A stretch of 64,000 nucleotides of DNA from Cystobasidiomycetes sp. EMM_F5 (taxonomy: Eukaryota): contig JBPGPT010000007.1 of assembly GCA_051047955.1 (NCBI GenBank), positions 558,001 through 622,000 of the forward strand, read 5' to 3'. A model generated the notes under the pieces. It saw only the letters and a program-made list of their open reading frames with translations, did not search any database and had not been told where the DNA came from. Below, one piece after another: positions 1 through 48,372 of this stretch (positions are counted from its first letter, which is position 1; each line of letters opens with the position of its first letter). A program made the translations under genes and the position numbers.

Positions 1-486
1 GGACTGCGGAAAAGATGTAAGATTAGACTATTACTGATGTATGCAACACCACGCACCCTCTCGTATCTTCTCAGAATTGCTTACTGCCCAGCCTCTACTT
101 GGAGGATCCAGCGCAGTACTGAAATTGCGGAGACTCTCGAGTTCATTGCCCAATTCAACAGACTGTCCAGGAGCGGGAGATATGTTCAATACTGCATTCA
201 GTATAGCCATTGTAGCGCAGGCGTTGTTGATGACTTGGTGTGCGAAATAAAAGTTGGCATCGCTATTTGGCGTGCCTCTATCGGTATTGCTGGTAGAATC
301 GACATTTGCCGATGTATCAACGTATTTGAAGAGGAATATAAGCGCATAGATTGGTTGTATGGATGCTAGAAGGGCGGGGTCGAGACTGTATAATTCGCTG
401 AATTCCAGGCCGCGTACACCCAAATCTTCCAGTAATGCAGAGAAAATGGAGGGGTCGCTTTCAGTCAAAGACCAACCTTCAGACAT
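1..486 (-). CDS. Ubiquitin C-terminal hydrolase, UCH37/UCHL5-like (5' part; runs off window)
   Basis: GWSLTESDPSIFSALLEDLGVRG, LIFLFKY and FAHQVINNACATMAILN (catalytic Cys) are peptidase C12 motifs; GT-AG intron 56..4. Confidence 0.92.
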
Positions 487-1273
487 GCTCGGCAGTGTGG
501 TGTCAGTAGTGTATGACGCGATATTACGTCCTCTCAGAGTTTCATTCGGTTAGGCGAAAGGGCAGAGCGGACAAAAATGGATCAACCCAATAAAAATCAG
601 TAAAAATGGATCACAAGGGCATCGATCCCTTCACCTCCCGCATGCTAAGCGGCTGTCAAGAGCATTTTAATCAGCTGAACGTTTTTGGTGATCGTGGCCA
701 TGTGCTTACGCGCTCTACCACCTGAGCTAGCAACCCGATGAAAGAGCAGTCTTATTTTAGTATATATATATCCAGCAATTCGCCGGGGAGCGGAAGGCAC
801 GCAACAGCTGCAGGAGGTTTGAAGCGACCGAACTATAGATGGATGTACCCTGGACAGATGATTTACAAGCAGTATATGGGTAAATGCAATCTCGATGACT
901 GAAGTCGCCGAAAGTCAAACAAATCCGGCAAGCCGTAATCAAAAGCACCGCGCAATGGAGCACTTCTGCATTACAACGACTGCAATGACTGTAGACCATC
1001 ATGTACCCGCAAACAACTGAGAAGAACTGAAAGATCTGATATAATCAAAGCCTGACTTGAAGATTCAGGACCACGCACTGTAAAGCAACGCAAAAAGAAG
1101 CATGAACTGCAGGTTGCCGGAAAGCATATGGCTGGACGAAAGATTGCGGCGCCAAGGCTCGCAGTGAGTTTGTGGTCATTCACACCGGAAACTGCGAACG
1201 ATCTCAAGTGACGTCCGGCAGGGTGTGAAAGATACTAATGGGAAATCTGGTCGACAAAATCGGCCAGTCTACG

Positions 1274-4200
1274 CTAGTCCGTATCTTCGGTCATCTTCGC
1301 GTCGACGTGTTCAGTGCTTGCGTTTTCGTTTGTCTCGGGGCGAAGTCCGTGCTGCGGGTCTGGAAAACTTATGCCGATCGAATCGAGGTATGCAAAAATA
1401 GGGGTGGCGTATTGGCTCAGCTGCACTGCGGCAGCTTCGTACCACAGCACATTCGTCAGACGCGGACCACCGCGAGTAGTAGGACGAACGGTCTCTGCTG
1501 TACGAAGTCTGAGAACTGGACTCCACTGCCTAAGCTCCATTTGATCTGTGTTCGGTATTTGCAGCACCAGGAATAGGACGAAATGACCGGGGTGTTCAGA
1601 ATCTTTGCGCAAGCAAGCTCTGCAGACGATGCCATCTTCCGTGACAAATTCCTCTCTCTTTCCCAGTACTCGCTGCAGGTTTGCGGTGACAACCTTGAAT
1701 ACAAACCTTCTGAATTTACCCTCTTCGACAGTACCAGAGTCACTTGACTTCGATCTTTTCTGCACTCGCGCTCGTAATGGTTGGCCTGGCAGGCATATGC
1801 CGTTACCTGGCATTGCGAATAGGACATGCCCATTTTGATGATTGCGCCCGTTGACAACAAGCTTGGCCGGTATCTGCCACCATTCACTTCGTATGAGATC
1901 GACCAGCTGTTTGACGGTCTGGACAGACCTCTGCTTGTCATTCGGACCCCTGATGATTTGCAATGCAGACTGCTGTCCGGAAGATGAGCTTGCTGTGGGA
2001 ACTTTTGAGTTCACGGCGTCAGAACCTATCAGTGTGGCTTTGTTCCAACGTCTGCGCTCCTTAGGCGTGACTCGAGAGGGTGGTGCGCTGCGACCATCTG
2101 GAAGCTGGCGGGAAGTCAGGGACACTGGTACATCATCTGCAAATGGCCCGATATCGTGAGTCTGCCCATTAGCAGAGAGCAATCTGCGGTGCCCGCGCAG
2201 TCGACCGAGTGTGGCCCATCTCCGGTGACACGTCAAGCATTGGTACGTTCGCCGAAAGCCTGCGCGTTGTCTGTCGCGCCGGTCCCACGCCGACTGGCAT
2301 ACCTGCGACTCGGTGTGCTCCCGTAGAGCAGGCCTGTGTGAAAATGTTTGACCACATCCACACTGATGGTGGCGCGAAATATGCCTGTGCAGCTCCTGCC
2401 GTGTAGTAAATGATTCACTGCGTGGGGGCTGTCGAAGTGCACAGTAGTCGCAAGCGTGCTCGCGTAAACCGGAATGTTCAGCATGATGATGACGATCGTG
2501 GTCATGCTTGCTCCTTGTTGTGTATCCGCAATTGTGCACATTGCAACGATAACCATCCGTTCGGCCGGTCAGACGGACAATGTCATACGACGACAGCGGA
2601 GCTGGCCGGAGCGCGTGACGCCGGAGTCTATTGCGTCCAATACGCCCACCGACGGAACTCCCGACGCACAAGCAAAGTCTAGCCAGCCGCCCCATCCTGA
2701 GAGATCGTGCGAACGTCACGGCAACCGCAGCGGTGTCCAAACCGCTCGACTCTTCCTGAACAAATGTGGGAACGGCATCGCTAGCGAGCTGCCTTGCGAT
2801 AGTCCGAGCTGTAGTCATGCGCATACCTCGTCGCAAGTCTCCGATAAACACTAAGTAATCCCGTGGGGTAGAATGGGGAGTACCGCCCAGGAGGAGCAGT
2901 TGCAACTCGGATGGAGTGCTAAGCAGAGTATCGGCACTAGGGACGGATAAGGACACTACACGTCCCGCTGCAATGGAGTCAATGAGGTCTCGGATAGCGC
3001 CGTCGGGATACGAAGGGGCTGAAAGCAAGTCGTCAAAGGTGGAGAGTGTACTGCCGCCGAAAGCGACAAAGAGCTGAGAGTCACCATCCTGCCAGACGCC
3101 CGAAATACCTTTGCGATGTTGGAGCAGCTGGTTCTGGGCATAAGTAGACGGATCTCGAGTATCAACAGAAGCACCGAACTGCTTCGACCAGTTCGAGAAA
3201 CGAACGACGATGGCATGAACGCCTCTGAAGTGCCTCCCCGCTGGAGCTGCAACCTGCATCGGCGAAGGCAGACTCTCGAACCCAATGCCAGAAGCTGGGT
3301 GGATTTTGAGAAGCACTTCTAAATCGGTTTCAAGGTGCGAGAGATTCTCCGCTTGGGTGGACAGCAGCTCATGGTGTACCACCTTCTCACCGTCTTGAAA
3401 TGTGTCCGTGCTCGAGACTGAATTGCGATCACGAGAGCCTAGAACGCTGCCTACTCCCTGTAAGCGCCTCTTGAGGAGTCCGTGCCTCATGTCCGTATAA
3501 AATTTCGATGCTTCTCTGTGTGGATGACTCCCCGGGTCCGCAATGTGAAGTATGAGAGCCCGCGCACCAAACTCGTATGACGGAAAATCTTCGTTGTCGA
3601 TGGTGTCCTCGTACAGGGGGTGTACATCTATCACAAAGTCTGGAATGCACTCATAATGAAGGCCATTTAGGTCTCCACCATCGCCCATGAGCAAATGATG
3701 GAGTGCACCCGGATCGACTAGTAGGCCATCGCCAGAAGTGAGAATCAGCCGCTTGATGGCATACTCTGCTATGAGTCGGACCAGCGAAGATGGTCTAGAC
3801 ATGACAGGCAGCGTTACATCGCACTGCTCGTCAAAGAATGCCTCGATACCACTGAGGGCTGATCGCTGTACGACAATTATCGCAATCTGCTGCATGGTGA
3901 CCAGCGGGTCGATGGCTTGAATGTATATAAATGTGGAGACACGCTGCGCATTGATGTAGTCTGTCCAGAAAGTCTCGTCCTGGTTTTGGCAAGCTGAGAA
4001 CCTGATGACTCGAACATACATGGAACCTTCAGGGCAAGGCTCAAGAGGGAGGAGATCAATTGGGGAAAGAACTGGAGACACAGAGAAGGGGGAGATATGG
4101 TTGACGAGATTGAGGAGTCTGTCAATGTCAGTGTGTGCTAGTCTGATGTAAGACCCTGGGGGATCTGTGTCCAACTGCAGACCGTCTGTGTCCGCTTGAT

Positions 4201-5730
4201 CGATCACGGGCAAGTCGCCGTCTAGATCGTCATGGTCAACTCCGAGCAAGTCAGTATCCGTTGCGTGTCCACTGTCCCTCAGATGCCGAGAGCCTGCTAC
4301 TGCTCCTTCCCTGAGAGCTTCGAAGTGACCGACCGTATCACTGCCAGATCTGTGCAGCAAGATTTCGGGGAGACTGGATGGATAATTCATCGTAAATGCT
4401 TGTGTACCAGGCTGTCCGTTATATGACTGATAGACCACGAGGCGGCGTGCGTGAGCTAGTGCTGCGACAGCAGCCCCAACCAGTGTCATGTCTGCTGCAA
4501 ACGCGCCTGCAACATCACCCTGTACGCCAGCGTCCGTTTGCAATGTATTTTCCAATTGCAACAAGTCTGCTTCGAGTATGGGAGCTTCGAGACGGATGCC
4601 ATCATGGTCATCTACGACGGAAAGCCATGCATGCTCGCTTAATAACAAGCGTATTTGCACCAGGCCTGTCTCCCGGATGAAGTCCAGAGTTCGCTGGCGG
4701 ATGTCTTGCACACGTGCAAAGTTGCCATGGATTGACAAAGCCATCGCCGCCCATCCGCACAGGCCCTCGCCGGGATTGTTTACCACGCGTGAGAGGGCAC
4801 GCTGGTCTCGGTTGGAGTACGAGACGAATCTGGGCTCGATGTCAAAGCGGGACATCCAATGCGTGGACTCCTGCCGGACGTTCTGAGCGGGAGGTGAGGG
4901 GAGTTGCGATGATCTTCCGACAAGTTGTTTGACGGCAGGAGCGATACGAGAGACGGGTACAGCTTGGTAGAGAGGAGCTGGTTGCGGCACGGGAACCCAC
5001 ATAGGCACGAACCCTCTGGAAGTTACTCGGAAATGGAGAGACGGTTCCGGAGCATCGGTGAAAAGTGCGAAGTCAGGAAACAGTGAGTGTTGCCTGTCAT
5101 CTACGTGAAAAATGACATTGCGCCCGAGTACTGAGATATATGCCGATTCAGAGTAGTAAGAAGTGTGTGCAATGCGCTAGCTCACTGTAGCTCGCTGCGA
5201 CTATCACGTCCAGTGACAAGCCATCGTTTGTGCTACTGTCTGATAAACGATAGAACACAGTATCCAGAATAGCTGATATTTTGTCATAGTCCTTGAGGTC
5301 ACCTGTAGCAGCAAGGATAATCATTGCGCGCACGTCTGAGATAGCTGGGGCAGTCGGTGATAAAGTGAAGGAAACCGGTCCAAGATCCCCACCGGGGTCG
5401 GCGTCAGGGATCCAATGGCCATATTCTGATGCGGGTCGTAGATATGGCGGCTCAAGAGTGTCATCGAGGCACAAGGAGCGAAACAAAGCATGGACCTCTT
5501 CGAGTTGCGCTTGCGCAGGGACTCGGAATTCGGAGTAAAGTGAGGAGTCAGCGTACGGAGTGTTATTCCGAATTGCCAGTCTGATACAACCAGAATAAGT
5601 GCTCTGAAGCGTTGCCGCAACATTTGACGTACACTCCTCTCAGCCATGATGGATTTCCTGGAAAGTCCCAAACATTCCGGGCAATCACGCCAGAAAGCCA
5701 AAAGGATAGCGTGACCAGAAGCGAAAGCAT
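1274..5730 (-). CDS. 1449-aa multidomain protein: degenerate OTU-like + OTU + 2x serine-recombinase-like + C2H2 zinc fingers
   Basis: Exons 5730-5633, 5580-5186 and 5130-1274 splice in frame across 52 and 55 nt GT-AG introns. OTU motifs PGEGLCGWAAMA...GHFEAL. C2H2 fingers CNVHNC..HDRHH, CDYC..HISRH, CGCG..H and CLTC..H at ~2550-2170. Confidence refers to the CDS; the recombinase call is weaker. Confidence 0.8.
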
Positions 5731-6796
5731 TGTGGTCGCAAACTCTGGTTGTCGAGCGTATGCAAAATGCCGAGCTGATTGTTGGAGTAAAGAGAAGTAG
5801 CCTTAAGCTGGAAATTGTGGCAAATCAAACATGCTCGGGGGAACTGGCGCATGAACTGAGTAAGAGCTGAGACGGAGCTGAAACGGCGCTGTAGGCTATC
5901 ACTGGATGTACAGCCATACAGGGGGCAAGATCTGACAGCTTTGTGCGCCGACTTCAAGAATACTGTAGCTGAAATCTGACATATACGATCATAGCATAAA
6001 CCTGGTATGACAATCACAGAGAGATAGAGTGCGTTCGAGGAGGGCCGATGTCCACATCCAAGCGTAGGTGTGAATGCCGCGTGGAATCTGCGAAGAATGT
6101 GGAGCAGGAAACCATAGGCATTTTAGTAATACTGGTTGATGATTCTGACTGCTAGGACGCCATTCAACTGACCAAGACGACTGAAACGTATGAGATTACT
6201 CGTGAGTAAATCTCCGGCGGTTGGAAGTCTGAGCCAACAGATGTCCCAATCGGGATAGCTGAAATAAGAATCATAGAGCATACTGCAAACTGTCGGGTAT
6301 ATCAGACGTTGAAGCACAGCAGGGATCTCGTAGATAGATTAGACTGACAGCACAGGGATAGGTTAGATGAATAGATTCGGGATTCGATGTACGACGAGCT
6401 GAGATGTGTCTGAAACATTGAAAAGACTGCGAGAGACAGCGAGACCCGAAGAAATTCCACGGAAACACACGGAGAGAGTCAGCTGCGCGGCTATACGCAT
6501 CAACAGTAGCGTCTACGAAACTGACCGTCTGCAGAAGAACGTTATGGGAGTAGCTGAGAGAGACCAGGATAGAAAATGCCAGCAATCAGGCTGATCATTG
6601 GACATATGAATCGCAATCCAATTTGAGTTACTGCTTAACAATGAATCGCCCAAGAGTCAGTTCATGATGTTTGATATGCCGCGGCAATTTGCGACGAACC
6701 CGATGAGCAAGAGCTGAGAGATCGCAGAGGCTGCTGAGAGGCAAAATGCGGTATTGACAGACTGCCATCTGAACAGCGGAGGCGCTGTTGCAGTAT

Positions 6797-9347
6797 TTAC
6801 GTCCGCCAATGACGAGTGAAGCGTCCGCGCTTATGATTACCGGTGACCGGAGGCCTACGAAAACGAGGATTGTTCTGTGAGGCGCCAGACCGATTCAAAC
6901 GCGACAGCAGGGGACTGGGAGGACGTTCGTTGAACGTTGGAAACTGTCTCGGCGTCTGCACCATCGGTTGATGGCGATCTGCTAGTGCAGCAGGATGAGC
7001 TTCAGCCGTGGGTGGATGTACAATCAGGCGGTCAAGCTGCTGTCTCCACACTGTAAATTCCGTCAGTCGAAGTCTGGCAACTGCCAGAATCGACTTACGA
7101 TCCAAGTGAATGCGTCTGTCCAAGCTTTGTGGCACTTGCGCTTGCAAATCTGTAATCGCGGGGAGCATTTCGAAGCGAACGTATCCGCGGAGTGTACTGA
7201 TAGAAGAATCGACAGAGGTATCGCGAACAAGGTAGACGAAGTGACGAGTATAGAGATATGCTTCCATTTCTGCCTGAGCTGCTGACAATCCGTGCTTGCG
7301 ATGGTCTAAGAATGACTGCATCATGTCCAGTAAGCTGTAACGTGTTCACCAAGTCAGCCCCCCTTCCCTTACCGTATGATAGCCAGAGGACTCACGTTAC
7401 AGTCTTCAGCATGCGAGCTCGGTAGGCATCAGCAGCCAACATTCCGGTCCAATCTGCAAGCTGTTCAGCGTTTGCCGAGTTGGGCATGCGAATGTTCTCG
7501 TGAAGGCGGGCCAAGACTTTGGCGACGTTGCCAGCCACATTCCCTCCAGGAGCCTCATAACACTGTGCCAGAAGTAGCAAAAGGTGATGGTTTGCCCTGT
7601 CTTGAGCAGTATCTTCGGGTGTCGGAGCGGACATGTGATGATCCAACAGCAATCTGTATGTCATGGCTGCTTGAATTTCCATTCTCATACTAGTATCCAG
7701 AGAACCGATACGGGCTGCTGTCATTGCCTTGGCTGCGTCGAGGTCGCCTTCACCAACTAACTTTGCGCGTAATTGTTCGGTAAACAAGGCGAAAGACTGA
7801 GCAAGGGACAAGGAGTGCGGCCCTGCTTGGAGAAGAAGCTGTAGGTCTGCTTTGAGATTGAACGGCTTGACTGCCGCCATGGAAGCCAAGATGGGTTGCG
7901 ATACGAATGCTGCCGTGGGGGACACATTAGAGATGAAAAGTTGGGGAACTGTATCACGCGAATGCGAAGCAGCATGTGCCCGAGATTGCGACAGCGGTGT
8001 TGATGCCGATTGGCCTAGAATAGCATGCTGCGGGGAGTTCTGCTGGAACGATGCCGGATAGCCGCAGGACCGTTGAGGAGATTCCGATGGCAAGATGGCA
8101 CTGTTCGATACCGTATTCAAGCGCACATAGTCTTGAGTTGCCAATTGCACTCCTCCCCGGACAAAGTCCGCTTTAGAGTTGCCGTGGACATCTTTCGGCG
8201 AATCTCGTTCATCGAAAACCGGACGTCCTAGGGAAGCGGCGGAAGACTGTGGTGGATACTGGGAAGTAGATTGCGGAATAATGTGTGCTGCTCCTGAATG
8301 GGCATGCTCCATGACATTGCCCAGCATTTGCATCGGATTACCGGTTTGAGCGGATTGAGCGGGTTGCTGAATCGCACCGGCCATTCCTGCATGATTTAGG
8401 ATGGGGAGGTTGAATGCAGGTTTAGGATGTTGTCCATGCATACTTGACTGATTTGACAACTGCAAGGTAGACTGTCGAAGGTTGGACGTCTGTGCGGGAT
8501 GACGATTTCCGCGTTTGAAAGCCATGACATCAAGCTGTGTAAGCTGAAATCATTAGCCGGTGTAGAGTATGGCGTGCGACTCGGCGCCTCACCAGTTCTG
8601 AGTGTATTGCTCCCGCGGATGCCCAACGATGTTCTGCTCTATACGGAACTGAGACCACTTCGAGAGCTCTGAGAGCGCTGAGAATGCCGATAGCATCAGG
8701 CTGAGATTTCAGAAAGACTATCAAGATGTTCATGGGCTGTGTGCCTGTAATCCTCTCAATGCGAGAACGAGCTGAAGCAAGAGCTGCGGAGTATGCTAGT
8801 AGGCCGTTTTTGAAGTAGCTGACCAGATCTTTGGCATTGACGACGCCCGGCTACGACACTCGTCAGTAGGATTGCGGAGCGCGCTATCGCCAACTGGAGA
8901 TGCTCACGGGCACAGACAAAATGACTCCGGCAGTATAACCGAGGCGTCGAAATGTCTCATCCAGGCGGGCCTTCAATTTCATTCAGTCAACGTCCAATGT
9001 AAAGACTACTAACGCGCGTCTTACATGCGCTGGCTCAACATTGATGCCAATGACCTGCTCGTGAAAGGACATGAAATTACGGGGCGCATCGTCGTGAGAC
9101 CACTCAACGAAAGCTGCAGGCATGAGATTAGCGCACTAGAGCGCACAATTGCCGTGCATAGGCAGAGGGACATGCCTGTTTCCCAATTAGTAGTCGAGTT
9201 CACGGAGCGGTACGAACAGACTGGACCCCATTGAGCGGCATAGTTACGTAGCCCGCCTTGTTCGTAGACAGAGCGTCCGACGTCGGACTGGGTACTCAGA
9301 CGCACGCGAATGTTGTAGATAGAGAGCTGCCTGGTAGGACAATGCAT
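6797..9347 (-). CDS. 755-aa divergent RRM-like protein with Q/S/P-rich linker, helical C-terminal region and Arg-rich tail
   Basis: Six exons (9347-9176, 9113-9025, 8970-8908, 8850-8593, 8543-7396, 7334-6797) are phase-compatible and join ORFs 7392..8525 and 6797..7324. RNP2-like PTRQLSIYNI and RNP1-like ETAFVEW. Intron 1 needs a GC donor. Confidence 0.7.
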
Positions 9348-9435
9348 CGTCCAATATTCCAGTTGTCGAGTGCGTACTGAGCTGAAATAACGCCAGAATG
9401 TGCAGAGGCAGAAAAGGGCGAGACGACGGTATCAG

Positions 9436-9470
9436 GAGCAGAGCAGAGCAGAGCAGCGCAGCGCAGCGCA
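9436..9470. repeat. Pentanucleotide microsatellite (GAGCA)4(GCGCA)3
   Basis: Directly visible, ~90 nt upstream of the RRM-like gene ATG. Confidence 0.9.
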
Positions 9471-9722
9471 AGAAATCCGCATTAGTACTGCCACGGCTTT
9501 GCACGCAGCTGGCAAAAGGCAAAGATCGGCTAAGCCTGCTTGTGGCGACACGAGGCTATTTGCAATTAAGCAGGAAACAACGGAGGCAGACTGCGGATGT
9601 CGATGAAGCTGTCTATTTGCGCACTTTCGCTTACGAGATTTGTAGCATAGCTGATCAGACTGAGATTTCCCAAACAAAGAGAGCATCGAAACGACTGGTC
9701 GGAATGAATGAGAGCTGAAGAC

Positions 9723-11314
9723 TTACGAAAAGTGAGCGAGTATAGCATGGACGGCTGCCTGCCGTGTTTCATGGCGATGTACATGTGGTTCCAGACCCAT
9801 GTAGTCCACAAAACTGTGCCAGTTGCGTTCGCCGACAGCATGAGCACGGTCAGATGGCACCTCTGCACGCCGAACGAGAGAGAGTATTAATCCCCTGCCT
9901 TGACCTTGTATGGTAACTTCCTTGCCGCAGCGAGAAGCACGATGGATATACGAGATGGCATCGGTAGGGAGGTCCCAATTTATGATGAATCGCAGTCCGA
10001 CAGGATTGAGTCCACGATGTGTGATGTCGCTGGATACCAAAATATGATTCGTCTCCACGGACTCGTTAAACGCTGCCCAGGCATGCCGATTGTGCTCCTG
10101 GCCTTCACCTCGGTGGACGACCTCACAGCCCAATTTCTTGCCTAGGGCTCTAATAGCATTCTTGACGCGATTGGCAGTGTCTTTGCGGTAGCAGTATATG
10201 ATGACTTTGGGCAATTGGTTGTCGAATAGAGCACTCAGAAATGCCATCTTTTCATCATGGAGGGCTTCGTTGTCTCGTTCTCTGCCTGTCGTATTCAAAC
10301 GGAGATAGTGGTGATCGCGACGAAGTAGAGCATCGAGTGTTTGCGGGTTCACTACGATTGTTGGAGCGGCGGCAGTTATGCAGGACATCATTGTCTGTAG
10401 CTCATTGGTTTTGGCAGTTGCAGCTGTAAGAATAACTTGGACTTGATGACGGACGGGCAGCAGCCAAGCAACTTTTTCTTCGTTTTCGCCGTTCTTGTCC
10501 GCTTCGTCAAGCCAAACAACGCCATAGTCATCGGCGGAAAATGCTGGAGTTGCATGATCAAAACCGAGGTGATAGGCTTTGCCCCAAGTGCCTAGCACAA
10601 AGCGAGCGATGGATGCCTCCTGATGCATACGGGCGCGATCCAATCGACTAGCGTCACCGTGTATGAGAGCGCTGGGAATGAGCAGTCCTTGCGAGAGTCT
10701 TTCGAAGTCACGGTAGGCCTGCTGTGCGAGGAGAATGGTGTTGAATATGGCGATGACACGTAATTCGGGGTTAGAGACGAGTAGCGCTATGATTCCAATC
10801 AGACTGTCGTAAATAGAAATCATTAATAAAACTCACAAAATTCCCCATCATTTACTTACCAAGCTGTCGTTTTGCGCTGCTTTTCTTCAGCCACTACAAG
10901 GAGTGATTCACCAGACACGATGCGCGGAATGACCTGCTCTTGCAGCGGTGTCATGCGCGGCCAATTCTGCTCTGCGATATTGAGAACCAATAGAGGCGAA
11001 ACGGGGGCCAACAAAGCCGAAAAAGTGGCATGAGACTCAGGGTTTAATTGCACAGTGTTCGGTGGCATAACAAATGGAGGAGGTGGCATGAAGTCGGTGG
11101 CTGGGTCGATGGCAACGCCATGTTGCGGTGATCCTGGCTGAGAGCCCTGATGTGAACCTTGTTGGAAGCCTTGGTTAAGAGCAGGATTATCGTTGTTATG
11201 ATCATCTGCTGTAGGATTAGGTAGCTGAATATTCTGTGCAAGCCATTCCGCGCCGCTCGATGCAGCAGCGGGCGAGTGCGGCTGAGAATGTGTGTGATCC
11301 TGCTGCATGCTCAT
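9723..11314 (-). CDS. 511-aa divergent DEAD-box RNA helicase-like protein
   Basis: Exons 11314-10860 and 10803-9723. Q-motif MTPLQEQVIP, I AEEKQRKT, Ia NTILLAQQ, Ib TWGK, II LDEAD, III AAT, V DITHRGLN, VI YIHRASRCGK. Confidence 0.88.
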
Positions 11315-11510
11315 AGCGAGGGTAGATGGAGATGTAGAAAACCGAGCTGAACGACGACTGAAATAGTTGAGCAATGGGAGTTGCGGTAAACTGCAAAAGC
11401 AAGAAGTGCGTTGGCCGTCAGCCACCCTTTGCTGTGCTAAGCCCAAGCTACGCACCAGGTGCAGGCGGATTGTAAATCGGACGTCCGCTTCGCACTCAGT
11501 CGTCAAGACG

Positions 11511-11590
11511 GAACGGTCAGTAGCTTGCTAGTTTAGTTTCAACGTTGTCGGAACGGTCAGGAGCATGCTAGTATAGTCTCAACGTTGTCG
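11511..11590. repeat. Two tandem 40-bp direct repeats (36/40 identical)
   Basis: gaacggtcagtagcttgctagtttagtttcaacgttgtcg vs gaacggtcaggagcatgctagtatagtctcaacgttgtcg; each contains the palindrome CAACGTTG. Confidence 0.9.
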
Positions 11591-12045
11591 GGCAACGGAC
11601 GGAGCTGAGATGGCGCTGAGATAACGCTGGCATACGACTGAGAGAGAGCTGAAACGTGGCTGACAGGGAGCTGAATGAGAGACGCCTTACCCACTGCAGG
11701 CGACCAAGCAGACATCGGATACCGGAGAGCGCCTTCGAGCTGGATCGTTGGAGGCTTTCGCGGCTGTCCGACAAAAGCGAAGCGGAACGGTATTAGAATT
11801 CCGGAGTGCAGAACCTCGAGCCCAACGTAAGCTGAGTAAGCTGCGTCCAGCGTGCAGGAGCCTATGTCGGCGCTGGGTGTCACCTCGGTAGTCCTTGTCG
11901 GACAAGATGCACGAGCTGCTTCTGCGGTAAGGTAGTCGAGCGCGGTCGCCCTCTCTTTGCTCTGCTGTCAAAGCACTTTCAGCTCAACTCAGCTCCCTCA
12001 GCCGTTGCTCCAATCTCCTCACTTTCAAGCTTTCCACAAAGCACG

Positions 12046-12506
12046 ATGAACCCAGCCGACACCACTTTGGCAAACATTCTGCTCGCAGTGTTGGCGCGCA
12101 TCGACGCGCTGGACGGCGCGATGCAGGCGCAGGCTGCACAGCTGCAGCTGTTAATCGACCAGCAGCGTGAGTCGGCGTTTTGTGCTAAGCGTCCGACGTC
12201 GACGGTGGCTGACTGCCGGACATCTCGTCAGAGACTGGCCCAGCCGGAGCACTGGCTGTGACCAACGCAGAGCCAGCCAATAGCGGATGGGATGATGCTC
12301 CAGCTGTGACCAATGCAGAGCCGGCCAACAACGGAGGTGATGACGCTCCAGCTTCGACAAGCGCAGAGCCAGCCAACAGCGGATGGGAGGATGCCCCAGC
12401 TTCGACCAGCGCAATGCCAGCCAACAGCGGATGGGAACAGGCTCCAGCCGGACCAAGTGGAGGCAGCAGTGAGGGAGCAGGATGGGTTCCGTTCAAGCGC
12501 TATTGA
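12046..12506 (+). CDS. 131-aa protein: N-terminal coiled coil + acidic GW repeats
   Basis: Exons 12046-12166 and 12232-12506 join in frame across a 65-nt intron (GTGAGT, GCTGAC branch point, CAG). Motifs SGWDD, SGWED, SGWEQ and AGW. Confidence 0.8.
12255..12446 (+). repeat. 4 x 48-bp coding tandem repeat (unit ~AVTNAEPANSGWDDAP)
   Basis: Units start at 12255, 12303, 12351 and 12399; many differences between units are synonymous in the + frame. Confidence 0.92.
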
Positions 12507-13408
12507 CGGGCACAGATGGTGCTAAGCCCTAGGTGCGGTGGTCAGAATGTCGGACAGTCCAGCAGTTTCAGACGACAGGGTGACTCTTCAGCTCGCTGTT
12601 GATGTATCGGGAATGTCGATTCGAAGTAGTCTGTCCAGGCTTAGCAGGATGCCCTGGCGGTCCACTCATCTTTTGATTCTCTGCTCCAGAGATCATCCTT
12701 TTGCACCGTATGAGGCCTATACTATGAGCAGACTGTCCTCTCCATATACCTTTATGAGCTTTCCATGTAAATCGCAACTTGGTTGCAAGATATCTTTCTT
12801 CCTCCTGATCCCGGGCCGCCAAGCTGAGAAGACCACTCCCAAAAATACAAGGATGATGGTTGCTGAGCTTCGTTAGCAAGCCTTGCACGGACTCTATCAC
12901 CTGTGCTTGACCAACTATGCGATATTGCCTCCTACAACACTACGACAATCTACAGCTTGAATGAAGACGCAGAACCTGACGGCAGACCAGCCGACTGCGG
13001 TGGTACATTCTCCTTGCGCTTCTTTCCAGTTAGCGCACTCTTTGCCGCCTTGCCTTTTCCTACGACTGTGACTCCTCGCTTGCCAATGAGGCTGTTCATC
13101 GTCTTCTTTGTGGCGCTTCTCCCAAAAAATACGTGACAGCTACAAACCACGTGCCAAACGTCGTCCGCACGTCAACGACGGGTACAGACCGCGGTGAACC
13201 GCTTGCCGCAGCTCGTCTTTCTTCCAAATCATTTAATAATTAACACGACCACAACATGGACAGCTGCAGATCTAGATGAGAACGCTAACTTCTCTGAACA
13301 CTTCTCTTCAGCCCACTGTGCAAACACTGTACCTGCACACCGTTCCTTGTGGTGACGCATCCCGCGACTATCGCCAACCCAACTTCCTGCTAATCACCAG
13401 TTTCAAGC

Positions 13409-15483
13409 ATGACCAACCTGAATGGCTTCTCTATCTTTGGCGGCATTGTCTTCCTGGTCGTCAGTACGTGGGCACGTGCATGTTTCGTGCCAAGATACTG
13501 AGATATTGCAGTCTTTCTGGTCATACATCCCATATCTTTCCGTTTGCCATTGTCGTGGTCTAATGGACTCGTTGGGCTCCTCGTGAAACTTCGCCTGATA
13601 GATCCCCGTAAAGACGCCCAGGCAGCGGTACCCTTAGAGCCCATCTCGGAAAACGCTAGCAGAGACAAGCTAGTGGAACAAGCCATCTCAACCAGGAAAT
13701 CAGTCACTGGCAAACGACTTCGGATTACAATAAATTTGTCATCTGCGCCTCTTCTTGGGGTACTACTCCTATTGATAACCACCACTATCGGTGGAGAGGA
13801 AATAGCAAAAGGTATAGCTGGCGAAGGAGGCTCCAAACCATACGACGTACTCGTGCTGTTTATATCGCTGGCGTATATAGCGACGTCACTAGACGCGACG
13901 GGCGGGTTGCGTTACCTCGCTTTCCGAGTCGCGCTACGGGCAGGCAGTGGCACGCAGCTGTATTCTTATCTGTATCTTTTCTTCTTCGCCTCCGGTGCTA
14001 TCATTGGCAACGACCCAATCATTCTGTCTGGTACACCTTTCCTGGCGTACCTCACCCGTGTTAGCGGAATCACGCCGCCAACAGCCTGGATATATGCTCA
14101 ATTTCTAGCAGCGAATGTTTCTTCTGCTGTTTTGGTCTCCTCTGTAAGTAATCCTGCGTGATCTCCGACTACCAAAGCTACATGGGGCTAACTGTACGGA
14201 CAGAATCCGACGAACGTATTGATATCGGGGGTAAGGAGCTTTCAGCCTATGGATAGCGCCTTGGGGAGTCTGACATCGTACCTTGCCGTCACCGCAGGCA
14301 TTTGGTCTGAATTTCCTTAGCGAATTCACAAAGTACACCGTCCTACCTTCCTTTGCTACGGGCATAATTATCTTCCCCGTCCTTCTACTTGCTTTCAGAA
14401 ATAACGCGGTCATACACTCTATACATCCCAACGCAGAAAGCCCTTTGATCCCACACAAATTCGTAAAGCCCGATGTGAAACCCAAAGAGGCATTGATCGA
14501 CCCGTCTGGAGCCATTTTTCACACATGCCTCCTGTTGACTACATTGGCAGTATTGGTTGGCACTTCGTTCCTAAAGGGCGTAGAAGTATGGATGATAACT
14601 GCGCCAGCTGGAATTGTGGGGCTACTCAGAGACATTGCTTATGATGTGTCGATGAGGAGGCAACACAGCAAAGATCGCAAAAGCCCTTCACCACCGCCAG
14701 GGCGCGACGATGCGCAGAGCAGATCGGATAAACATACAGGATCAAGAAAAACACTACCTTCCGTATGGAGGAACGCCAAAACGCGATTCCCGACTACTTG
14801 CGTCACTCTTTCCAGACTGCCATGGCCGCTGCTTCCCTTCGCCATCGGCATGTTTATTTTGGTACGCTCGCTGGACCGCCTTGGATATATATCGATATTC
14901 GCAGGCTGGACTGCGAAAGCTTGCACCAGTCCCGCAAGCGCCATTTTCTTCGTGGGAGGAGTCGTAGCATTCGGTCTATGTCCACTGTGCGGAACGGTAA
15001 GATTTGTCAAGGCATATATATACGGAAGCAGCTGATCGTAAGAGGTGGCATGGTTCAGAATATTGGCGCGACCATTCTCGCTGTAGAAATTCTAGCAAAT
15101 GAAAATTTTGCGAATGCTCCGCAGGTGCAAGCAGATCCTCGCATTTTGAAGGGCGCAATCTACGCAGGTAAGAGTAGCGTCAAGTATATCCAGCACCGTG
15201 CAGGGCTAAGACTGTACCGCAGTCGCGATTGCAAGCAATACTGGCGCACTTGTAACGCTTCCATCCTCCTTGGCGGGCTTACTGTGGAGTCGGATATTAT
15301 CGCAGAAGGGTGCGTTGTATCAGTGCTTGCACCCATCCACTCGTTCGTACTGATGTAGGGTACTTTGCAGGCATTCGCATTACGCAACTGAACTTTTCCG
15401 CTATCAATTTGATACCTGCATGCATTGTTACCTTCGCAGCTCTAGGTATCGTGCTGATCGAAGTATTGTATTGGACATCGTAA
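13409..15483 (+). CDS. ArsB/NhaD-superfamily (arsenite/anion) permease
   Basis: Multi-exon, many TM segments; PYDVLVLFISLAYIATSLDATG, GNDPIILSGTPFLAY, LVSSNPTN and LPWPLLPFAIGMFILV. Confidence 0.82.
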
Positions 15484-42184: not shown

Positions 42185-45100
42185 TCATGCCGTCAGCCCT
42201 TGAACTGTGCAAGCATCCTTCTGACCGACCTCGGACTTGTGGTGCCGCTGTAACGCATCGAGGCGGACAAACATTTGCCCACACGCTTCGCATTGATACT
42301 TCTTGACGCCAGTATGAAGCAGTTCATGGCGTTTGAGATCATGGCGACGCGCGAAGCCTGACATAGACATCAGTACGATGTTCAAGGCGTTTTACGCAAT
42401 TGACTGGGCATCTCACCCTTGTTGCAAACCTCGCACACGAAAGGTTTCGAACCTTCGTGCGATCGTATATGGCCCTTGAGGTTGTATGCGCGAGTAAAGG
42501 TTTCGCCGCAATACTCGCATGCGAATTTTGCGCTGTTTGGGTCTTTGCGCCGGCGACGGGCAGCTTGCTTGGTAGCCTCTGTGGTTTTGCTCTCGAGGGA
42601 TACTTCCCCTTGGTGGGATAGGCCACTATAACCGGATACGTCTGAAACAGCCGATGATCTGCGACGACGAGCATGTACGGGCATGCCCAGTTGTCCGTCC
42701 GGCCAGCCAGCCATATCCTCTTCAAGTGATGCGTAACGGGGCATGCCATCCGGCCCAAACTGATGTTGCATCATCAGAGGATTGAGACCGGTTGGATCGA
42801 ACGCATTGAACTGTCCGGTGGGCATAGGTCCGCCGTATCCTGAATACCCAGGCATAATTTCCGCTGTCTGAGGCATAGAGTACATATTTGAACCATGCAC
42901 CGTTTGGGGGTATCCAAAGTTGAGCTGTGACGGATACTGCGATGTAGGTAATCCGGGCATGGATGAGAAGAGGTTGCCGTCCATACCTAGGAGTGAACTA
43001 GACGAATTTGACAGGTCGAATTGATTGGCATCGGGTTGAGCAAATTCAGACATGGGAGGTGGCATCATTGGTATGTTGGCAAAAGCCGCATTGTTAAAAT
43101 CGTTATATTGCTGGTCGCGGGGACCGTCAATCGACAGGTCGAATTCTGGATTTCGAGGCGAAAAGGTGCTCGAAGTGAAGTCCTCACTGACAGCTCCGCG
43201 ACGGTGCGATCGACCTTCGGCAGCAGACTGAGACCGTCGCATGTCTGCAGGCGTTGGAGGTATCAAAAAGCTTGTCTGACCAGCATTTGGCGACGGTGTG
43301 ACGCTAATATTGCCAGACCGCATATTGGCAGTAGGCATATCGTATGGCGTTCCTCCTGCCGCGGAACGTCGACGGTCTGTGCCCGCTGGACCAACAAGAG
43401 ACTGTCGTTGTTCCTCACCGAGCTGATAATCACTCAAGCCAGTCGGAAGTCCGTTGTCCTGCGGGGCTAAAGATAGCGTAAGACGAGAGAGGAACATTTC
43501 GTCACTGTTACTCGTTGAGCCATCCAGAGCTCGTGGATCAATGGCGGGCAGGGAGTCAATGGTATCTGTGCGTGGTCTTGCGTCGCGATTTCTCGACGAT
43601 GGCCGCTGCCCTTCCGCCTGCTGGCCGGTAGGTAGCCCTGCACTGCTCAACGGAAAGTCATAGGGCTCCTGATTGGTTAGCTGACCAGCTTCAAGAACAA
43701 TTGGTGAAGTCATATAGGTATCTGACTTGCTCCTTTGTCGTCGTCGATACGGACTTGGCCCCTGAAGATCAAGCGTGAGATCCCCTAGCGGCAAGCCTTG
43801 GTTCGGCCGCCGGGCGATGGGTGTGACAATGTCCAGATCCAAGTCGGGAAGACGCGATGCCGGCAGATCCGTCGAATCCTTCCTCTCTTCGGAAGTCTGT
43901 GGTTTGTTAAAAAAGGTAAAGACAGAGTCTAACGCTGCCATTGTCGAGTCTTGCCGTCCCGTAGCAGTACGAGGTACCGCAGTCGGTGTGGCAGTCGTCA
44001 GCATCAGATCTGGGGCCGATGGTATGGCTAATTGAGCCAGAGAATTTGTACGTGCTTCTTTCTGATTGATTCCATGTGGCAGTGGCGGAGACTTGAGTGT
44101 CGGATGACGACTTGGCGAGTCAAGGGCTGTCTCTACGCGGAATGCCGGAGCTCGAGGTGACGGTGAAGGCGATGAGCGCGCAAGTTGCGGAATAGATCCC
44201 AATTCTGGCTCGGAGATGCCTGGCGTCCGCCCATCTGCATGAAGTCTCGGTGATGCGTGCGGAGAAGCTGTAAATGCCATTTGTCGAGCAGCATTCCCAA
44301 GAGAGCGATGCTGATTTTCAGCAAGGGGTGGAGATGCCGAGGATGTGCGTATCGTCTGTTCCCTCGACACAGGAATCGGCATAGGGCTCGGTATAGGCGC
44401 AAACATCATTTCGACTGCCATCTCTAGGCCGTTGCCGGATTCTAACGGAGCCTCACCTCCTCGCAGTTCTGGCGAGCTGTTAAGCGCGCCCCCTGCTCCT
44501 TGACCACTGGGCGCTCCGGAGACGTGCGAGTGCGCGTATCCCGACGCTGAAGACACATCATCCCATTCTCGTTGCTGCTTGACGCTCTCCCTAAACGCCA
44601 GCAAATCTGCACCAGCAAAAGCAGATTGAGGATTTAGTGAAGATGATGCATCTTTATCTGCACCGACTAGTACATCATTCCGAGACTCGGGCGTAGTTGC
44701 TTTCGAGTAGCCTTGTTGTGAATGCGCGCCGTCGGTGTTGTAATTGTTCAGGTTGTTGTAGACGGAAGCAAAGTCATTCTCGCGGTCATCAAAGGAAGAG
44801 TCGTCGGCAAAGGAGCCGGCATACGATGGAGTAGCGTATCCGCGAGAATTTTCATCGTAAACCACGCTCGTTGGATCGAGACCTACGCCCAAGCCCAAGG
44901 CAAATGTACTTGACGAATTGCTTAACCCTGCTCCAGATCCCGCAGCAAAGTTGAACATGCTCTCGAGCGTAGACGACTCTGAAGTGAGGTATGCAAGGGA
45001 TCCAGGCTCTGCAGAACTGCCCATAGCATTCTGATTGTACAAAGACTGGTCGTAAGAACTGCTTCCCGACGGCGGCGAAGCGGCGGTAAGCACGCTGATG

Positions 45101-46044
45101 GGCGGACGTGTAGGTGATGCAAAAGCATTCTGATACCTCTGCGCTTGCACCGGAGGCGAACCGGAATGACTACGCAGGCCTGCCGATCCTGGCGGCGCAG
45201 GTCCGTATCCAGAGAAAGGCGAACTTATACGCTGTTGTTGTTGCTGTTGCATGGCGTTGAGAGATGCTCCTGTCAGCGGAGCAGAGTTTGGTACGTTTTG
45301 CTGGTACTGCATGCCAGAAGGCATTTGCTGCTGCTGTTGCGAAAGATAGTCCATTGACCCAGCGGCTGAGACTGGACGAGACATCGATTGCGGGTCGTGT
45401 GAGCCAGCGCGGTATGGACTGTAGGCATGCTGCTGTTGCTGTTGAGACAGTGGATCTGGCGAAGCCGTATATCCAGCGTAAGACGAAGAGCTGCTTGGTC
45501 GATGATCCTGCGCCATGTAGGGCGATTGTTGCGGCATTTGCTGCTGCATCTGCAGATACGACGACCCTTGCATTCCGCTCGACGTGCGTGGGGCCGGCGA
45601 TAGGTTTGCAATGTCGAAAGTGCTGGCTGTACCCGTGTTTGGGTGCGACATGGAACCACCGGAGTAGTAGGACGGACCTGCTGCGGCCGAGGACGACGAC
45701 GCAGCTATGTAAGCTGGAGAAGCTGATCCTGTGCGGGTGTAGCCCATGAAGCCTGCGGAAGACGGGGGAATGTATGCAGCCGACGTGTGCGACGAGTCGG
45801 AGTTTGTCGACGACTGGCGAGCTGGATGGGAGGTTGCTGCACTTCCGGATGCAGGAGCGTGCATCGGCGACCACGAGCGGGGCATTGGGGGTGTATTGAC
45901 TGTATTGCTCGTCGTCGTTTCAGCGTAGTTTGACTGTGGATTGCCCGTCATCAACGGGGGCGATTCGAGCCGGGATGACTGGGGGAGGCGACTAGGGTCG
46001 TAGTGGGAGTACTGTGAGGCGTATGGCTGGTTGTGGTGCTGCAT
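42185..46044 (-). CDS. C2H2 zinc-finger transcription factor, Crz1-like
   Basis: Long S/Q/P-rich region, then [42 protein letters not shown] and [17 protein letters not shown]; one intron near the 3' end. Confidence 0.85.
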
Positions 46045-46365
46045 GGCTGTTTGTTACCATTAATCTTGATTAATTGCCCTGAAATGGCCGCATTAGTATC
46101 ACCTCTGCCTCACCTCAACGCGACTCCTGCACCCACCCTCAGCCTGCCGTCGTCGTCTTTATCCAGTGCAAGTGTGTGGTCGTCCAGAGGCAGTGAATCG
46201 AGGGAAACAAACAATTGGACGTCGGACGGACGGCCTCAAAGGGAAACATGCGCATGGCAGCCGGGCAATGCAAACATCAACGGGACAGTCTGGCGACCGA
46301 GAAACATTTACTCGCATTCACTTTTGCATCTCATTCTTTCAACGCTCTTTGACTGCCCATCTCCT

Positions 46366-48218
46366 CTACTCGGTGTCCTCGCTCTCAGCAACTGACCTCG
46401 CATGAAGTCGCATCTTGAGAATAACTGCACACGCCAGCACGGCCCCTAACGACACCAGGAAGATGTTGAGGGGACTGCGTGTATGACTCTCATCAGACTG
46501 TGAACGATCGCCGAGCAAGATACAGACACTTACGTATAGTTGCCGTGGAGCTTGCGCTTGACGGCATAGTCAAACCCATACTGAACCAGGGTGAATGCTC
46601 CAGAAGTCGCATTCGCTAGCCCATACACTGTCCCAAACGTTTCGATGCCAATGACTTTGGTAAAGTAGTCAGAGATGGCAGTATACATCAACGGCCTCAT
46701 GATGGTGAAGGCTGTGATGCCGACGAGCTGCAAAGCCACGCTCGCCGTCATTGTCCCGATACCAAAGACCAGTCCGAGGACCAACAGCGCCCCGAAAGCC
46801 GCTGCCGATGAACGACTGTCGAGGAGAAAGCCAATGAACGGTATGCTCGCCACCCCACCGAGGGGAAGTAGCAGTACAAACGCATCGGTGAGCTTGCTTG
46901 CCAGTTGTGCATCCGCAGTGTAAAAGTAGACCTGGTCTGCCACTGTCGCAATGTAGAAATTGATGCGCAGCATGTAGCATACCAGGAACGCTTGCGCAAG
47001 CCAGAACCACGATGTCTTGATCTGTTCGAGCGCAGCTCTGCCCCAAAGAACACCGGTGATTGGGTCTGAATGCGCACTACCTCCGTCCTTTGAGATGTTC
47101 GCATCCGCCACCGGTTTCGCAGCCCATCCATCTTCTGCATCGAGCATTCGCGAGAACTGCGAGTCGTAGACAGACGGTTTGCGATGGATTCCGCCATTCG
47201 GTCGTCTGTATGCTGAGCCGACGCGCAGCATCGAATTGTTTGCGCTCGGAAGAGCGGATCCGTATGTCATGGACCTATTGGCATCTGCTTCTGCTACAAG
47301 AGGCGTCCTCTCGTCCGAAACAGCATCTTCAACATTGTCTTCTGGACCAGCAGCACTTTCTCGAGTATAAGGCTCCGGACACCCAAAGAAGATTTGCCAA
47401 ACAAATATTCTAGAAAGAATGCCTCTTAGCAGTAATCTCCCGCATCGTCGGTCGTAGTGTAGCCTACAGAGCTGGAATGATGGTGTAAAGCCAAAACCAT
47501 TCCCGCAAATGTACGCTGTGTCCGCTCGTTTTATAGATGGCTGCGTAGATGACAAAGGGCAAACTTGAGGCATCGAACGCACCAATGATGGCCGAAAGGA
47601 TGAGGCCGGAACGCTGGATGAGCACGTAAAGTTAGCTTAATTGTCTATATGATTGATGATTTCGGCCTGCCTTGGGGAAGGCGTTGCACAAGTGAAAACT
47701 GGACAGAAAAAGCATTGGTCCACCGATAGCGAGCATGACGTAAGCTGTTAGGAAGGGATCCAGTATCCGTCCGAGACCTCCAGATCTGTCGAGTCCCATT
47801 ACGAAATTGCCAAGCGCAAAGATGATGGCTCCAAGGAGAGAAGTCTTCTGAGGCCCAATGTTGTCCAGAATCATACCTATTGGTAAGGCAGCTAGGTTCG
47901 TTACGACCACAGATACGGTAAATGACAGGTTCAGCTGCAGATCCTGGCTGAGACACGGTCTTCCAGTCTCCCTCGCTGCCTGCCTTGCGGCTTCATCTTC
48001 GCAGTAGTCTTCGTAGACTCCTTCATGGATGAGTACTGGCTTCAGCGCCGCAAAGCCTGGATTGCCAATAAAATCAATTGATCAGTTTGGTCGAGAGAGC
48101 AACAAGATAAGGCCTATCATGCCGCACCAAAGATTACTCCGGCACAGCAAAGCGAGGCTGCCACGGCGACTGTGACCTGTGCAAGGCGCTTCGTGGAAGA
48201 TATTGAAGCTTGCTGCAT
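46366..48218 (-). CDS. MFS transporter, Fmp42/LAT3-like
   Basis: AGVIFGFAALKPVL, ALPIGMILDNIGPQ, MLRINFYIATV and GIETFGTVYG; many TM helices. Confidence 0.85.
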
Positions 48219-48372
48219 GCTTCAGCGCGTCGGCGAGGAAGAACTTGAAGCTGTCGGGCGAGCCGCCACAGCGATAGCGACAAAAATGGGCAGGATCCGA
48301 TCAATCATATAGCGGAGACGGAGAGCAAGCTACAGAACAGACACCACAACGATACGCGCAAAAGGCAAATAA

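Follow-up and report, generated by a model that had tools for sequence, protein, structure and literature searches.

A helically phased, directional upstream motif shared by four adjacent genes of a Cystobasidiomycetes genome, and a candidate reader encoded among them

Introduction

Do four neighbouring fungal genes belong together and, if so, what ties them to one another? The question arises from a 64,000-nucleotide stretch of Cystobasidiomycetes sp. EMM_F5 (GenBank assembly GCA_051047955.1, contig JBPGPT010000007.1, positions 558,001 to 622,000 of the forward strand; here called the window), a gene-dense housekeeping stretch of fungal genome with ~52% GC. Between a UCH37-type gene and a CitMHS-type permease it carries four genes, A, B and C on the minus strand and D divergent from them on the plus strand, which we refer to as the island. 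A preliminary description had presented these as four intron-containing, highly divergent genes that form a co-regulated module with the heptamer TCAGCTC upstream of each. The arrangement is borne out by the Pfam matches of the flanking genes and by the gene models, all four of which contain introns.

The reading that we favour, tentatively and aware that it may well fail, is that of a resident, lineage-restricted four-gene cluster in a housekeeping region, whose members would be co-regulated via a helically phased, directional motif with the product of gene A as candidate reader. The strand-specific motif appears to mark all four genes in their 5′ regions, and nowhere else in the 64-kb window does a gene appear to be so marked. 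Genuine novelty lies in the phased motif arrays and in how gene A is built; the claim of a 'new system' is unproven.

For genes A, B and C the products coincide exactly with hypothetical proteins annotated in a yeast isolate of the Cystobasidiomycetes. In the available part of the publication on this isolate its annotation is described as ab initio via funannotate, with RNA-seq unmentioned there, and the isolate is placed without a sister taxon among 27 genomes of the class, probably as the first genome of its family (PMC12697161). The label 'highly divergent' is therefore partly a sampling effect.

Results

A directional heptamer upstream of all four genes

TCAGCTC occurs 29 times in the whole window against 15.7 +/- 3.5 expected, a count reached in none of 100 shuffles, and 16 of the 29 sites fall within the island, at 3071-12594. 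As a local control, 1000 dinucleotide-preserving shuffles were made of 600-13250 alone, which preserves the pyrimidine-rich sense strand. The 13 sites on the minus strand of the island (shuffle mean 2.32, maximum 7) were reached by none of these, and neither was the combined count of 16 that includes the three plus-strand sites (mean 1.09, maximum 6). The excess is concentrated between the genes, with five sites in the A-B spacer (0.35 expected) and four plus two in the C-D spacer (0.16 and 0.13 expected), each reached by 0/1000 shuffles, and two in the B-C spacer (0.18 expected; 13/1000). At all 16 island sites the motif lies on the sense strand of the gene that it precedes, follows or occupies; 14 lie outside annotated coding sequence (CDS), and the base 5′ of the heptamer is a pyrimidine in 15 of the 16, compared with 6 of the 13 sites outside the island. 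Measured from each ATG, the sites stand at -125, about -220 to -235, -750 and -1065 for gene A, at -257 and -590 for gene B, at -36 and about -290 to -360 for gene C, and at -57 and -67 for gene D. The presence of the heptamer upstream of all four genes thus holds more strongly than had been claimed, given the sense-strand placement, the local shuffles and the phasing described below. A literature search with the heptamer returned nothing beyond primers and similar.

The most striking feature of the sites is their spacing. On the minus strand of the island, TCAG units follow one another at 11, 22 and 33 nt in 8, 4 and 5 instances, respectively, whereas outside it the counts are 2, 0 and 1 (minus strand) and 0, 0 and 1 (plus strand). 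Only two chains of at least three phased units exist in the window, one of six units upstream of gene C and one of three units upstream of gene A, whereas over 200 runs of an approximate shuffle such chains averaged 0.18 and never numbered more than 2. A repeat search and Tandem Repeats Finder (TRF) independently recovered the period-11 arrays as an 11-nt family. The six-unit array lies ~290-360 nt upstream of the gene C ATG and advances in steps of 11, 11, 11, 22 and 11 nt; the array of gene D is a triple with 10/9-nt spacing, inverted relative to that of gene C ~300 bp away. Helically phased and directional as they are, the sites would imply cooperative binding of a single factor.

Could the arrays instead be a by-product of local sequence? 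Four fast-evolving orphans may have come to lie side by side by chance, and the arrays may be a locally expanded 11-bp minisatellite or a pyrimidine-rich leader with no common regulator, an account to which we give a minor but real chance. Many open reading frames (ORFs) of the window are without a Pfam match, and no close relative of the lineage has been sequenced; pyrimidines abound on the sense strand; and short tandem duplication has been active at the locus, as seen in a 40-bp duplication, a 48-bp repeat present 4.2 times and the microsatellite (GAGCA)7. Set against this, three separate spacers hold independent heptamer arrays, whose two orientations match those of the genes, a pattern for which local tandem duplication at a single site is insufficient. 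Moreover, the counts in the A-B and C-D spacers were reached by 0/1000 local shuffles, and such arrays stand at no other gene in 51 kb.

Some features of the spacers are recorded here in their own right. The 40-bp duplication sits between the distal six-unit array and the candidate intron in the 5′ untranslated region (UTR) of gene C. The (GAGCA)7 microsatellite, at 9436-9470 in the B-C spacer, reads as TGCTC repeats on the sense strand. Two sites, 3064-3079 and 12580-12594, have a longer common context, GGTGACTC(T)TCAGCTC, including TGACTC, which we take to be a Gcn4-type half-site; one of them lies within the gene A CDS and the other ~80 nt past the gene D stop, and the likeness may be chance.

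Gene A is predicted to combine a serine-recombinase fold with OTU-like and zinc-finger modules

The order of modules read from the gene A product is an N-terminal region, an OTU-like Cys...His domain, an acidic linker, two repeats termed R1 and R2, C2H2 fingers and a C-terminus of ~300 aa. No part of it has a Pfam match, OTU, Resolvase and C2H2 included, the C-terminus has no match in a PDB sequence search, and a word-index homology search returned its own cluster alone. When 1.84 billion representatives were searched exhaustively by phmmer, 12 matched at E<=0.001, the query included. One of these, P0011, is a generic poly-zinc-finger protein, and the other relatives are short ORFs of environmental or assembly records and, from Cystobasidium minutum, a hypothetical protein of 248 aa (P0009). 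Among the 11 non-self matches, nine are without a Pfam domain. The architecture is conserved in other sequences, since P0012 spans the end of the Cys/His module into R1, and P0003, P0004 and P0005 span R1-R2, P0003 together with the fingers. Metagenome scans with alignment A4 and with P0008 gave pattern matches and no confirmed relative, and among the papers listed by literature searches, also on eukaryotic serine recombinases, none dealt with a protein of this kind.

R1 and R2, each ~160 aa, are followed in the family alignment by a helix that ends in GRN-like residues. An AlphaFold2 (AF2) model of R1 from an eight-sequence alignment reached a pLDDT of 75 and a pTM of 0.73, and in a VIA fold search of 48,161 PDB representatives 11 of the 12 top chains were named serine recombinases, the exception being 3lhk_A, a 'putative DNA-binding protein'. 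The best chain was the serine integrase 9dxd_A (Z 9.4, 149 residues aligned, root-mean-square deviation (rmsd) 4.5), followed among others by Sin (6.9), 3g13 (6.6), TP901-1 (6.4), phiC31 (6.2), Bxb1 (5.2) and gamma-delta (5.0), where unrelated folds begin at Z 4.4 and a Z below 8 can reflect a common arrangement. Among the matches listed by Foldseek, 12 of 44 rows for PDB were serine recombinases, resolvases or transposon recombinases, and 13 of 50 rows for BFVD were recombinases, resolvases or integrases, none of the latter at E<=0.001.

R-[FY]-S is present in all ten R1 and R2 copies of the family alignment, and in the R1 model R15-F16-S17 come directly after strand 1 (residues 9-16). As chain residue 1 is paired with model residue 8 or 9 where the aligned ranges begin, and given the N-terminus of Bxb1 (MRALVVIRLS, compared with ...YVRVIRFS in R1), R15 and S17 of the model would stand opposite R8 and S10 of Bxb1 integrase. 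A second catalytic cluster of these enzymes, Asp/Arg/Arg after strand 3, comprises D67, R68 and R71 in gamma-delta numbering; in R1, strand 2 is followed by Q-R, of which the R is kept in every copy and the Q is replaced in P0004, and there is an invariant R-P, mostly as S-R-P, whereas R2 has neither and is without the arginines conserved in R1. Searching PDB sequences with the R1 profile by hmmsearch found no recombinase, and a second gene A profile likewise gave nothing relevant.

R1 and R2 are thus predicted to have a serine-recombinase fold with a conserved R-x-S, a similarity by fold only and not proof of a recombinase. Like Bxb1, TP901-1, phiC31, Sin and gamma-delta, R1 would have a beta-alpha-beta catalytic fold followed by a long helix, with R-x-S at the end of the first strand (VIRFS in R1, VIRLS in Bxb1). 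It differs from them in having no sequence-profile similarity and in carrying two tandem copies in one chain, the second without the conserved arginines. Furthermore, putative C2H2 fingers take the place of the helix-turn-helix (HTH) or recombinase/zinc-ribbon DNA-binding domains, an OTU-like domain and a 300-aa tail are added, and the gene is eukaryotic and intron-containing. To our knowledge, serine recombinases are essentially prokaryotic, phage and giant-virus proteins, found in eukaryotic genomes mainly as IS607-type imports.

For the N-terminal module, OTU (PF02338) matched neither P0014 nor any of 11 family members at E<=10. The motif N-x-P-G-x-G-x-C-G-[WY]-A-A is nonetheless present in all four sequences that cover this stretch (the query, P0008, P0010 and P0013), and (G/D)-H-[FYW]-[EQ]-[AG]-[LM] in all four that cover the second (the query, P0008, P0012 and P0013), with G in three and D in P0013. 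The AF2 model of this domain is poor (pLDDT 38.9); Atlas scores were 0.91-0.93, with 20 of 30 matches in a set where 19% of members carry OTU. We therefore regard the N-terminal Cys/His domain as OTU-like and the OTU call as a plausible lead. In the finger region the unit at 977-1002 is canonically spaced (C-x2-4-C-x12-H-x3-5-H), whereas in three units the loops or ligands are irregular; on the gene A product itself zf-C2H2 scores at a Pfam E >1, and the region aligns with the fingers of the relative P0003, for which the Pfam zf-C2H2 E value is 1.2e-9. The earlier view of gene A as a recombinase-like protein with OTU and zinc-finger modules draws on its motifs, on the predicted fold with its R-[FY]-S, on the Pfam match of P0003 and on the Atlas lead, and falls short where Pfam detects nothing in the protein itself and hhalign finds no relation of R1 to the Bxb1 catalytic domain.

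Genes B, C and D

Gene C is the one member of the island with clear family matches, to DEAD (53.5 bits, cut-off 26) and Helicase_C (54.9 bits, cut-off 23.5) in Pfam, which establishes the DEAD-box gene of the preliminary description, albeit with a degenerate P-loop. Of its 98 PDB matches at E<=0.001 the best is DDX6 (E 7e-12, 48 bits). Like DDX6/Dhh1, it keeps the Q motif (TPLQ), LDEAD, recognisable motifs V and VI and both RecA-like domains; unlike them, its Walker A reads AEEKQRKT, not of the GxGK(S/T) type and in place of AKNGTGKS in DDX6, and AAT replaces SAT. The N-terminal 100 aa are low-complexity, and a word-index search recovered the protein itself alone among 5175 word-sharing candidates. 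We infer a very divergent DEAD-box protein that is probably ATPase-impaired, with poor ATP binding or hydrolysis; since the P-loop glycines are lost, a role as RNA clamp or scaffold is likelier than one as ATPase. At 9712-9726 the gene C stop (TAA) sits within a perfect GTAAGT donor consensus, with TCAGCTC directly after it. Given this position of the stop, the annotated C-terminus may be wrong, and an intron of 114-118 nt to 9613/9609 is possible.

Gene D is small, and its second exon holds 4.2 copies of a 48-bp (16-aa) unit, AEPANSGW(D/E)DAPAxTx (TRF score 243, 80% matches). It has four GW dipeptides, three in repeat units and one near the C-terminus, so that the earlier designation as a GW-repeat gene is upheld. 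No annotated public protein was found for it and exon 2 has no PDB match; as no homology search beyond PDB was run, we make no orphan claim for this gene.

The assignment of an RRM to gene B, in contrast, finds no support. The product is Q/S/P/A-rich and low-complexity, without a recognisable domain; there was no Pfam match for P0023 at E<=1 or for the exon ORFs at E<=10, no Atlas or PDB match, and none of 7999 scored candidates in the word-index search reached E<=0.001. The strings FVYLVR and RGYVRFEM are only ~13 residues apart, a gap that we take to be too short for the RNP2-RNP1 spacing of an RRM. In the ab initio model the upstream exons, 9123-8560, overlap with a stretch rich in TCAG and could be leader rather than coding sequence. 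A 106-codon open frame at 8530-8850 (minus strand), coding exon 2-3 in the public model, is among the most TCAG-rich stretches and could likewise be 5′ leader; the next in-frame ATG of the main gene B ORF is at 8525.

These three products raise the possibility of an RNA-silencing or RNA-granule module that serves in genome defence or at the sexual stage and of which gene A would be the regulator or effector. DDX6 cooperates with GW182 in P-bodies, and GW repeats serve as hooks for Argonaute; the nearest solved relatives of gene C are DDX6/Dhh1 (E 7e-12 and 8.3e-11), gene D carries its GW dipeptides in acidic repeats and gene B is low-complexity. However, the DDX6 similarity is marginal (48 bits), barely above that to DDX39 or archaeal helicases, the P-loop of gene C is degenerate, gene D has only four GW dipeptides and gene B is not an RRM protein. 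All that carries this proposal is one degenerate DEAD-box protein and one small protein with GW repeats, and we consider it quite improbable.

Residency of the block

The neighbours of the block (UCH, the permease, Nup192, Xrn1-type, PheRS and GrpE) are of the housekeeping kind. The GC content at third codon positions (GC3) of the large island exons, 0.47-0.54, matches that of the neighbours, 0.47-0.57, and codon use is also alike; an argument from foreign composition was accordingly rejected. Beyond chance-size matches, no terminal inverted repeats or long direct repeats bracket the block in 1-14000, in agreement with the preliminary description, which had noted no element termini. We found no tRNA genes or Rfam families, and no extra copy of the block genes in the protein collections searched. 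The 90% cluster of gene A holds only this genome's copies and unrelated 53-aa fragments, and none of the ten non-self gene A matches examined is assigned to this genome by name. The 51-53-aa 'members' of the gene A and gene C clusters were considered as extra copies and rejected as a clustering artefact, being unrelated aminotransferase-like fragments and others.

A mobile or integrative element, or its relic, built around gene A as a recombinase-type enzyme, with the arrays as binding or synapsis sites and B, C and D as cargo, is a further explanation of the block. In its favour are the predicted serine-recombinase fold of gene A and the R-[FY]-S conserved there, as well as the occurrence of arrays in both orientations around 11600-12000 and the patchiness of the gene A family, which comprises a few environmental contigs and one Cystobasidium protein. 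The available text on IS607-family elements describes a class with helically phased direct repeats and without terminal inverted repeats (TIRs), in which four helically phased 9-bp direct repeats are cooperatively bound by the serine transposase TnpA (PMC6188088). As IS607 elements themselves have no TIRs, the missing TIRs of the island do not exclude a class of this kind. The likeness, as far as that source goes, lies in a serine-recombinase-fold protein beside short direct repeats about one helical turn apart, in the absence of TIRs; the repeat differs, being a 7-bp motif with an 11-bp period here compared with 9 bp there (PMC6188088). It differs also in that the arrays occur in every intergenic spacer and follow gene orientation instead of marking two element ends, and in that neither a TnpB or Fanzor gene nor evidence of mobility was found. 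By analogy, IS607 TnpA is the closest mechanistic parallel to the phased arrays, and it keeps alive a reading in which gene A would recombine DNA at them. Against an element stand the lack of a second copy in the protein collections searched, the spliceosomal introns of all the genes, the neighbour-like composition and an R2 without the arginines conserved in R1; with no evidence that the four-gene block moves, we judge an element of this kind unlikely.

The block might also derive from a eukaryotic virus, such as a giant virus, as an endogenised fragment with an early-promoter-like motif common to its genes, but this appears highly improbable. A common motif upstream of every gene is typical of large DNA viruses, and each island gene has one; the best family-bearing Atlas set for the OTU-like domain is a cluster that is 60% viral (Nucleocytoviricota), and giant-virus resolvases are among the weak BFVD fold matches. 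On the other side, all genes have spliceosomal introns and host-like composition, no viral hallmark genes are present, BFVD gave no match at E<=0.001, and four IMG/VR scans (alignment A4, P0014, P0023 and P0019), which detect close relatives only, found no relative. The suggestion that the island is a selfish or virus-derived element thus finds no footing in terminal repeats, GC3 or viral relatives.

Table 1 Coordinates of the island features and of the two flanking genes in the window
Feature	Position	Strand	Details and basis
Gene A	5647..1274	-	P0014, 1401 aa; public annotated model
Gene A exons	5647-5635, 5521-5186, 5130-1274	-	Public model
OTU-like motifs, gene A	NNPGEGLC, residues 234-241; GHFEAL, residues 384-389	-	Motif reading
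R1, putative serine-recombinase-fold domain, gene A	YVRVIRFS, residues 488-495	-	Followed by helix plus (D/G)RN
R2, gene A	HAIVVRFS, residues 755-762	-	Followed by helix plus GRN
Three to four degenerate C2H2 fingers, gene A	Residues 977-1105	-	Motif reading
Gene A upstream sites	5772..5891	-	Three-unit phased array 5881/5870/5859 and single site 5772-5778
Further gene A upstream sites	6396-6413 (pair), 6711-6717	-	Motif search
Gene B	9123..6797	-	P0023, 698 aa; public annotated model
Gene B upstream sites	9379-9385, 9712-9718	-	Motif search; 9712-9718 lies 2-8 nt past the gene C stop codon
Gene C	11308..9720	-	P0019, 509 aa; public annotated model
Gene C intron	10859-10804	-	Splice site in sequence
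Proximal pair TCAGtcgtcgtTCAGCTC	11344..11361	-	36-53 nt upstream of gene C ATG
Candidate 5′-UTR intron, gene C	11455-11391	-	Sequence
40-bp tandem duplication	11509..11591	.	2.1 copies, 90% identity
Main six-unit TCAG(C) array	11594..11674	-	Starts 11674, 11663, 11652, 11641, 11619, 11608
Gene D array TCAGCTCaacTCAGCTCccTCAGCC	11979..12005	+	40-67 nt upstream of gene D ATG
Gene D	12046..12506	+	~130 aa; model derived from sequence in this analysis
Gene D exon 1	12046-12166	+	Predicted helical, Q/A/L-rich segment
Gene D intron	12167-12231	+	GTGAGT...CTGAC...CAG
Gene D exon 2	12232-12506	+	Tandem 48-bp repeat
Left flank, Peptidase_C12/UCH (UCH37-type) ORF	31-549	-	Pfam E 7.1e-38
Right flank, CitMHS-type permease ORFs	13502-15035	+	Pfam

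Discussion

We tentatively propose the following mechanism for the resident cluster. The four genes are probably transcribed as a co-regulated set, and the YTCAGCTC arrays, often direct repeats one helical turn (11 bp) apart, would serve as cooperative sites for one sequence-specific factor that occupies one face of the helix and thereby drives or represses all four promoters; the nearest mechanistic parallel is the cooperative binding of phased repeats by IS607 TnpA described above. The best candidate for this factor, obvious but unproven, is the product of gene A, which would act on the arrays as a DNA-bound regulator and possibly as a recombinase. Gene B (low-complexity), gene C (DEAD-box) and gene D (a helix and acidic GW repeats) would then supply proteins of the kinds found in ribonucleoprotein (RNP) assemblies.

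Several points weigh against this proposal. Co-regulation, the part of the earlier 'co-regulated module' that stands, does so on sequence alone. For gene A as reader, nothing ties its fingers to the TCAGCTC motif; Foldseek against PDB, although headed for R1 by the same chain 9dxd_A (E 8.4e-3, probability 0.93), gave none at E<=0.001; Pfam Resolvase (PF00239) was matched by 0/11 gene A family members at E<=10; and hhalign of the R1 profile with the Bxb1 catalytic domain returned a probability of 0.2%, to which the caution on VIA scores given above has to be added. As for the motif, two of the 16 island sites, 3071 in gene A and 8769 in the doubtful upstream exon of gene B, lie inside annotated CDS; gene B has single upstream sites only and the weakest spacer enrichment (13/1000 shuffles); and the pyrimidine-rich sense strand somewhat favours the motif, a bias for which the local shuffles account. 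Finally, orphans are common here, 14 of the 25 other ORFs of at least 150 aa in the window being without a Pfam match, and four adjacent orphans are less remarkable in such a window and in a genome without a sequenced sister taxon.

A regulatory parallel is found in the AflR-type fungal clusters, in which co-regulated genes have a common promoter motif and a cluster-encoded zinc-finger regulator. Here too, adjacent genes have a common upstream motif and one of them encodes a putative DNA-binding protein. The island, however, holds no biosynthetic enzymes, its motif is directional and set in helically phased arrays, and its candidate regulator is a 1401-aa multidomain protein and not a Zn2Cys6 factor. 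By the zinc-finger recognition code, the contact residues of gene A's finger 1 (S,H,D,R) and those of its finger 2 (T,Q,E,R) would presumably prefer a triplet of the GC(T) type, the motif's core; we treat this as a weak lead.

A bolder reading takes the fold of gene A at its word. In engineered zinc-finger recombinases a resolvase catalytic domain is fused to C2H2 fingers; these are artificial proteins, and their catalytic domain is proven active. Gene A is predicted to follow the same domain logic, a serine-recombinase module and then C2H2 fingers, with the difference that it is natural and its fingers are degenerate (own Pfam E>1). It might then be a natural 'zinc-finger serine recombinase', founding a eukaryotic lineage known so far from cystobasidiomycete-like fungi, that assembles cooperatively on the 11-bp-phased YTCAGCTC arrays in the manner of IS607 TnpA and inverts or excises the DNA between them, for instance the ~300-bp C-D segment as a promoter switch; alternatively, it might mobilise the four-gene block as a new class of eukaryotic element. 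Taken together, these suppositions are a long shot.

What the island means depends on which of these readings holds. A spliced fungal gene that combines a tandem fold with R-x-S, C2H2 fingers and an OTU-like protease domain would be a new architecture and, if active, gene A would be the natural counterpart of the engineered zinc-finger recombinases, with the phased directional heptamer arrays as its concrete candidate target. Through these arrays the cluster also offers a compact system for cooperative promoter recognition by helical phase in a basidiomycete yeast. If the genes are merely co-regulated orphans, the value is modest and lies in the curated annotation of four 'hypothetical proteins' and a candidate cis-element.

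Genomic surroundings

Elsewhere in the window, ORFs match Nup192, an Xrn1-type helical domain, FUN14, MpaB and mitochondrial-type PheRS, and further Pfam-matched ORFs outside the island correspond to GrpE, a tRNA methyltransferase and a C2H2 protein. On the minus strand, 42382-46053 holds another very long ORF, of 1223 aa, its sole Pfam signal being a C-terminal C2H2 finger; ORFs of 368, 558 and 247 aa at 46530-50835 are without a Pfam match.

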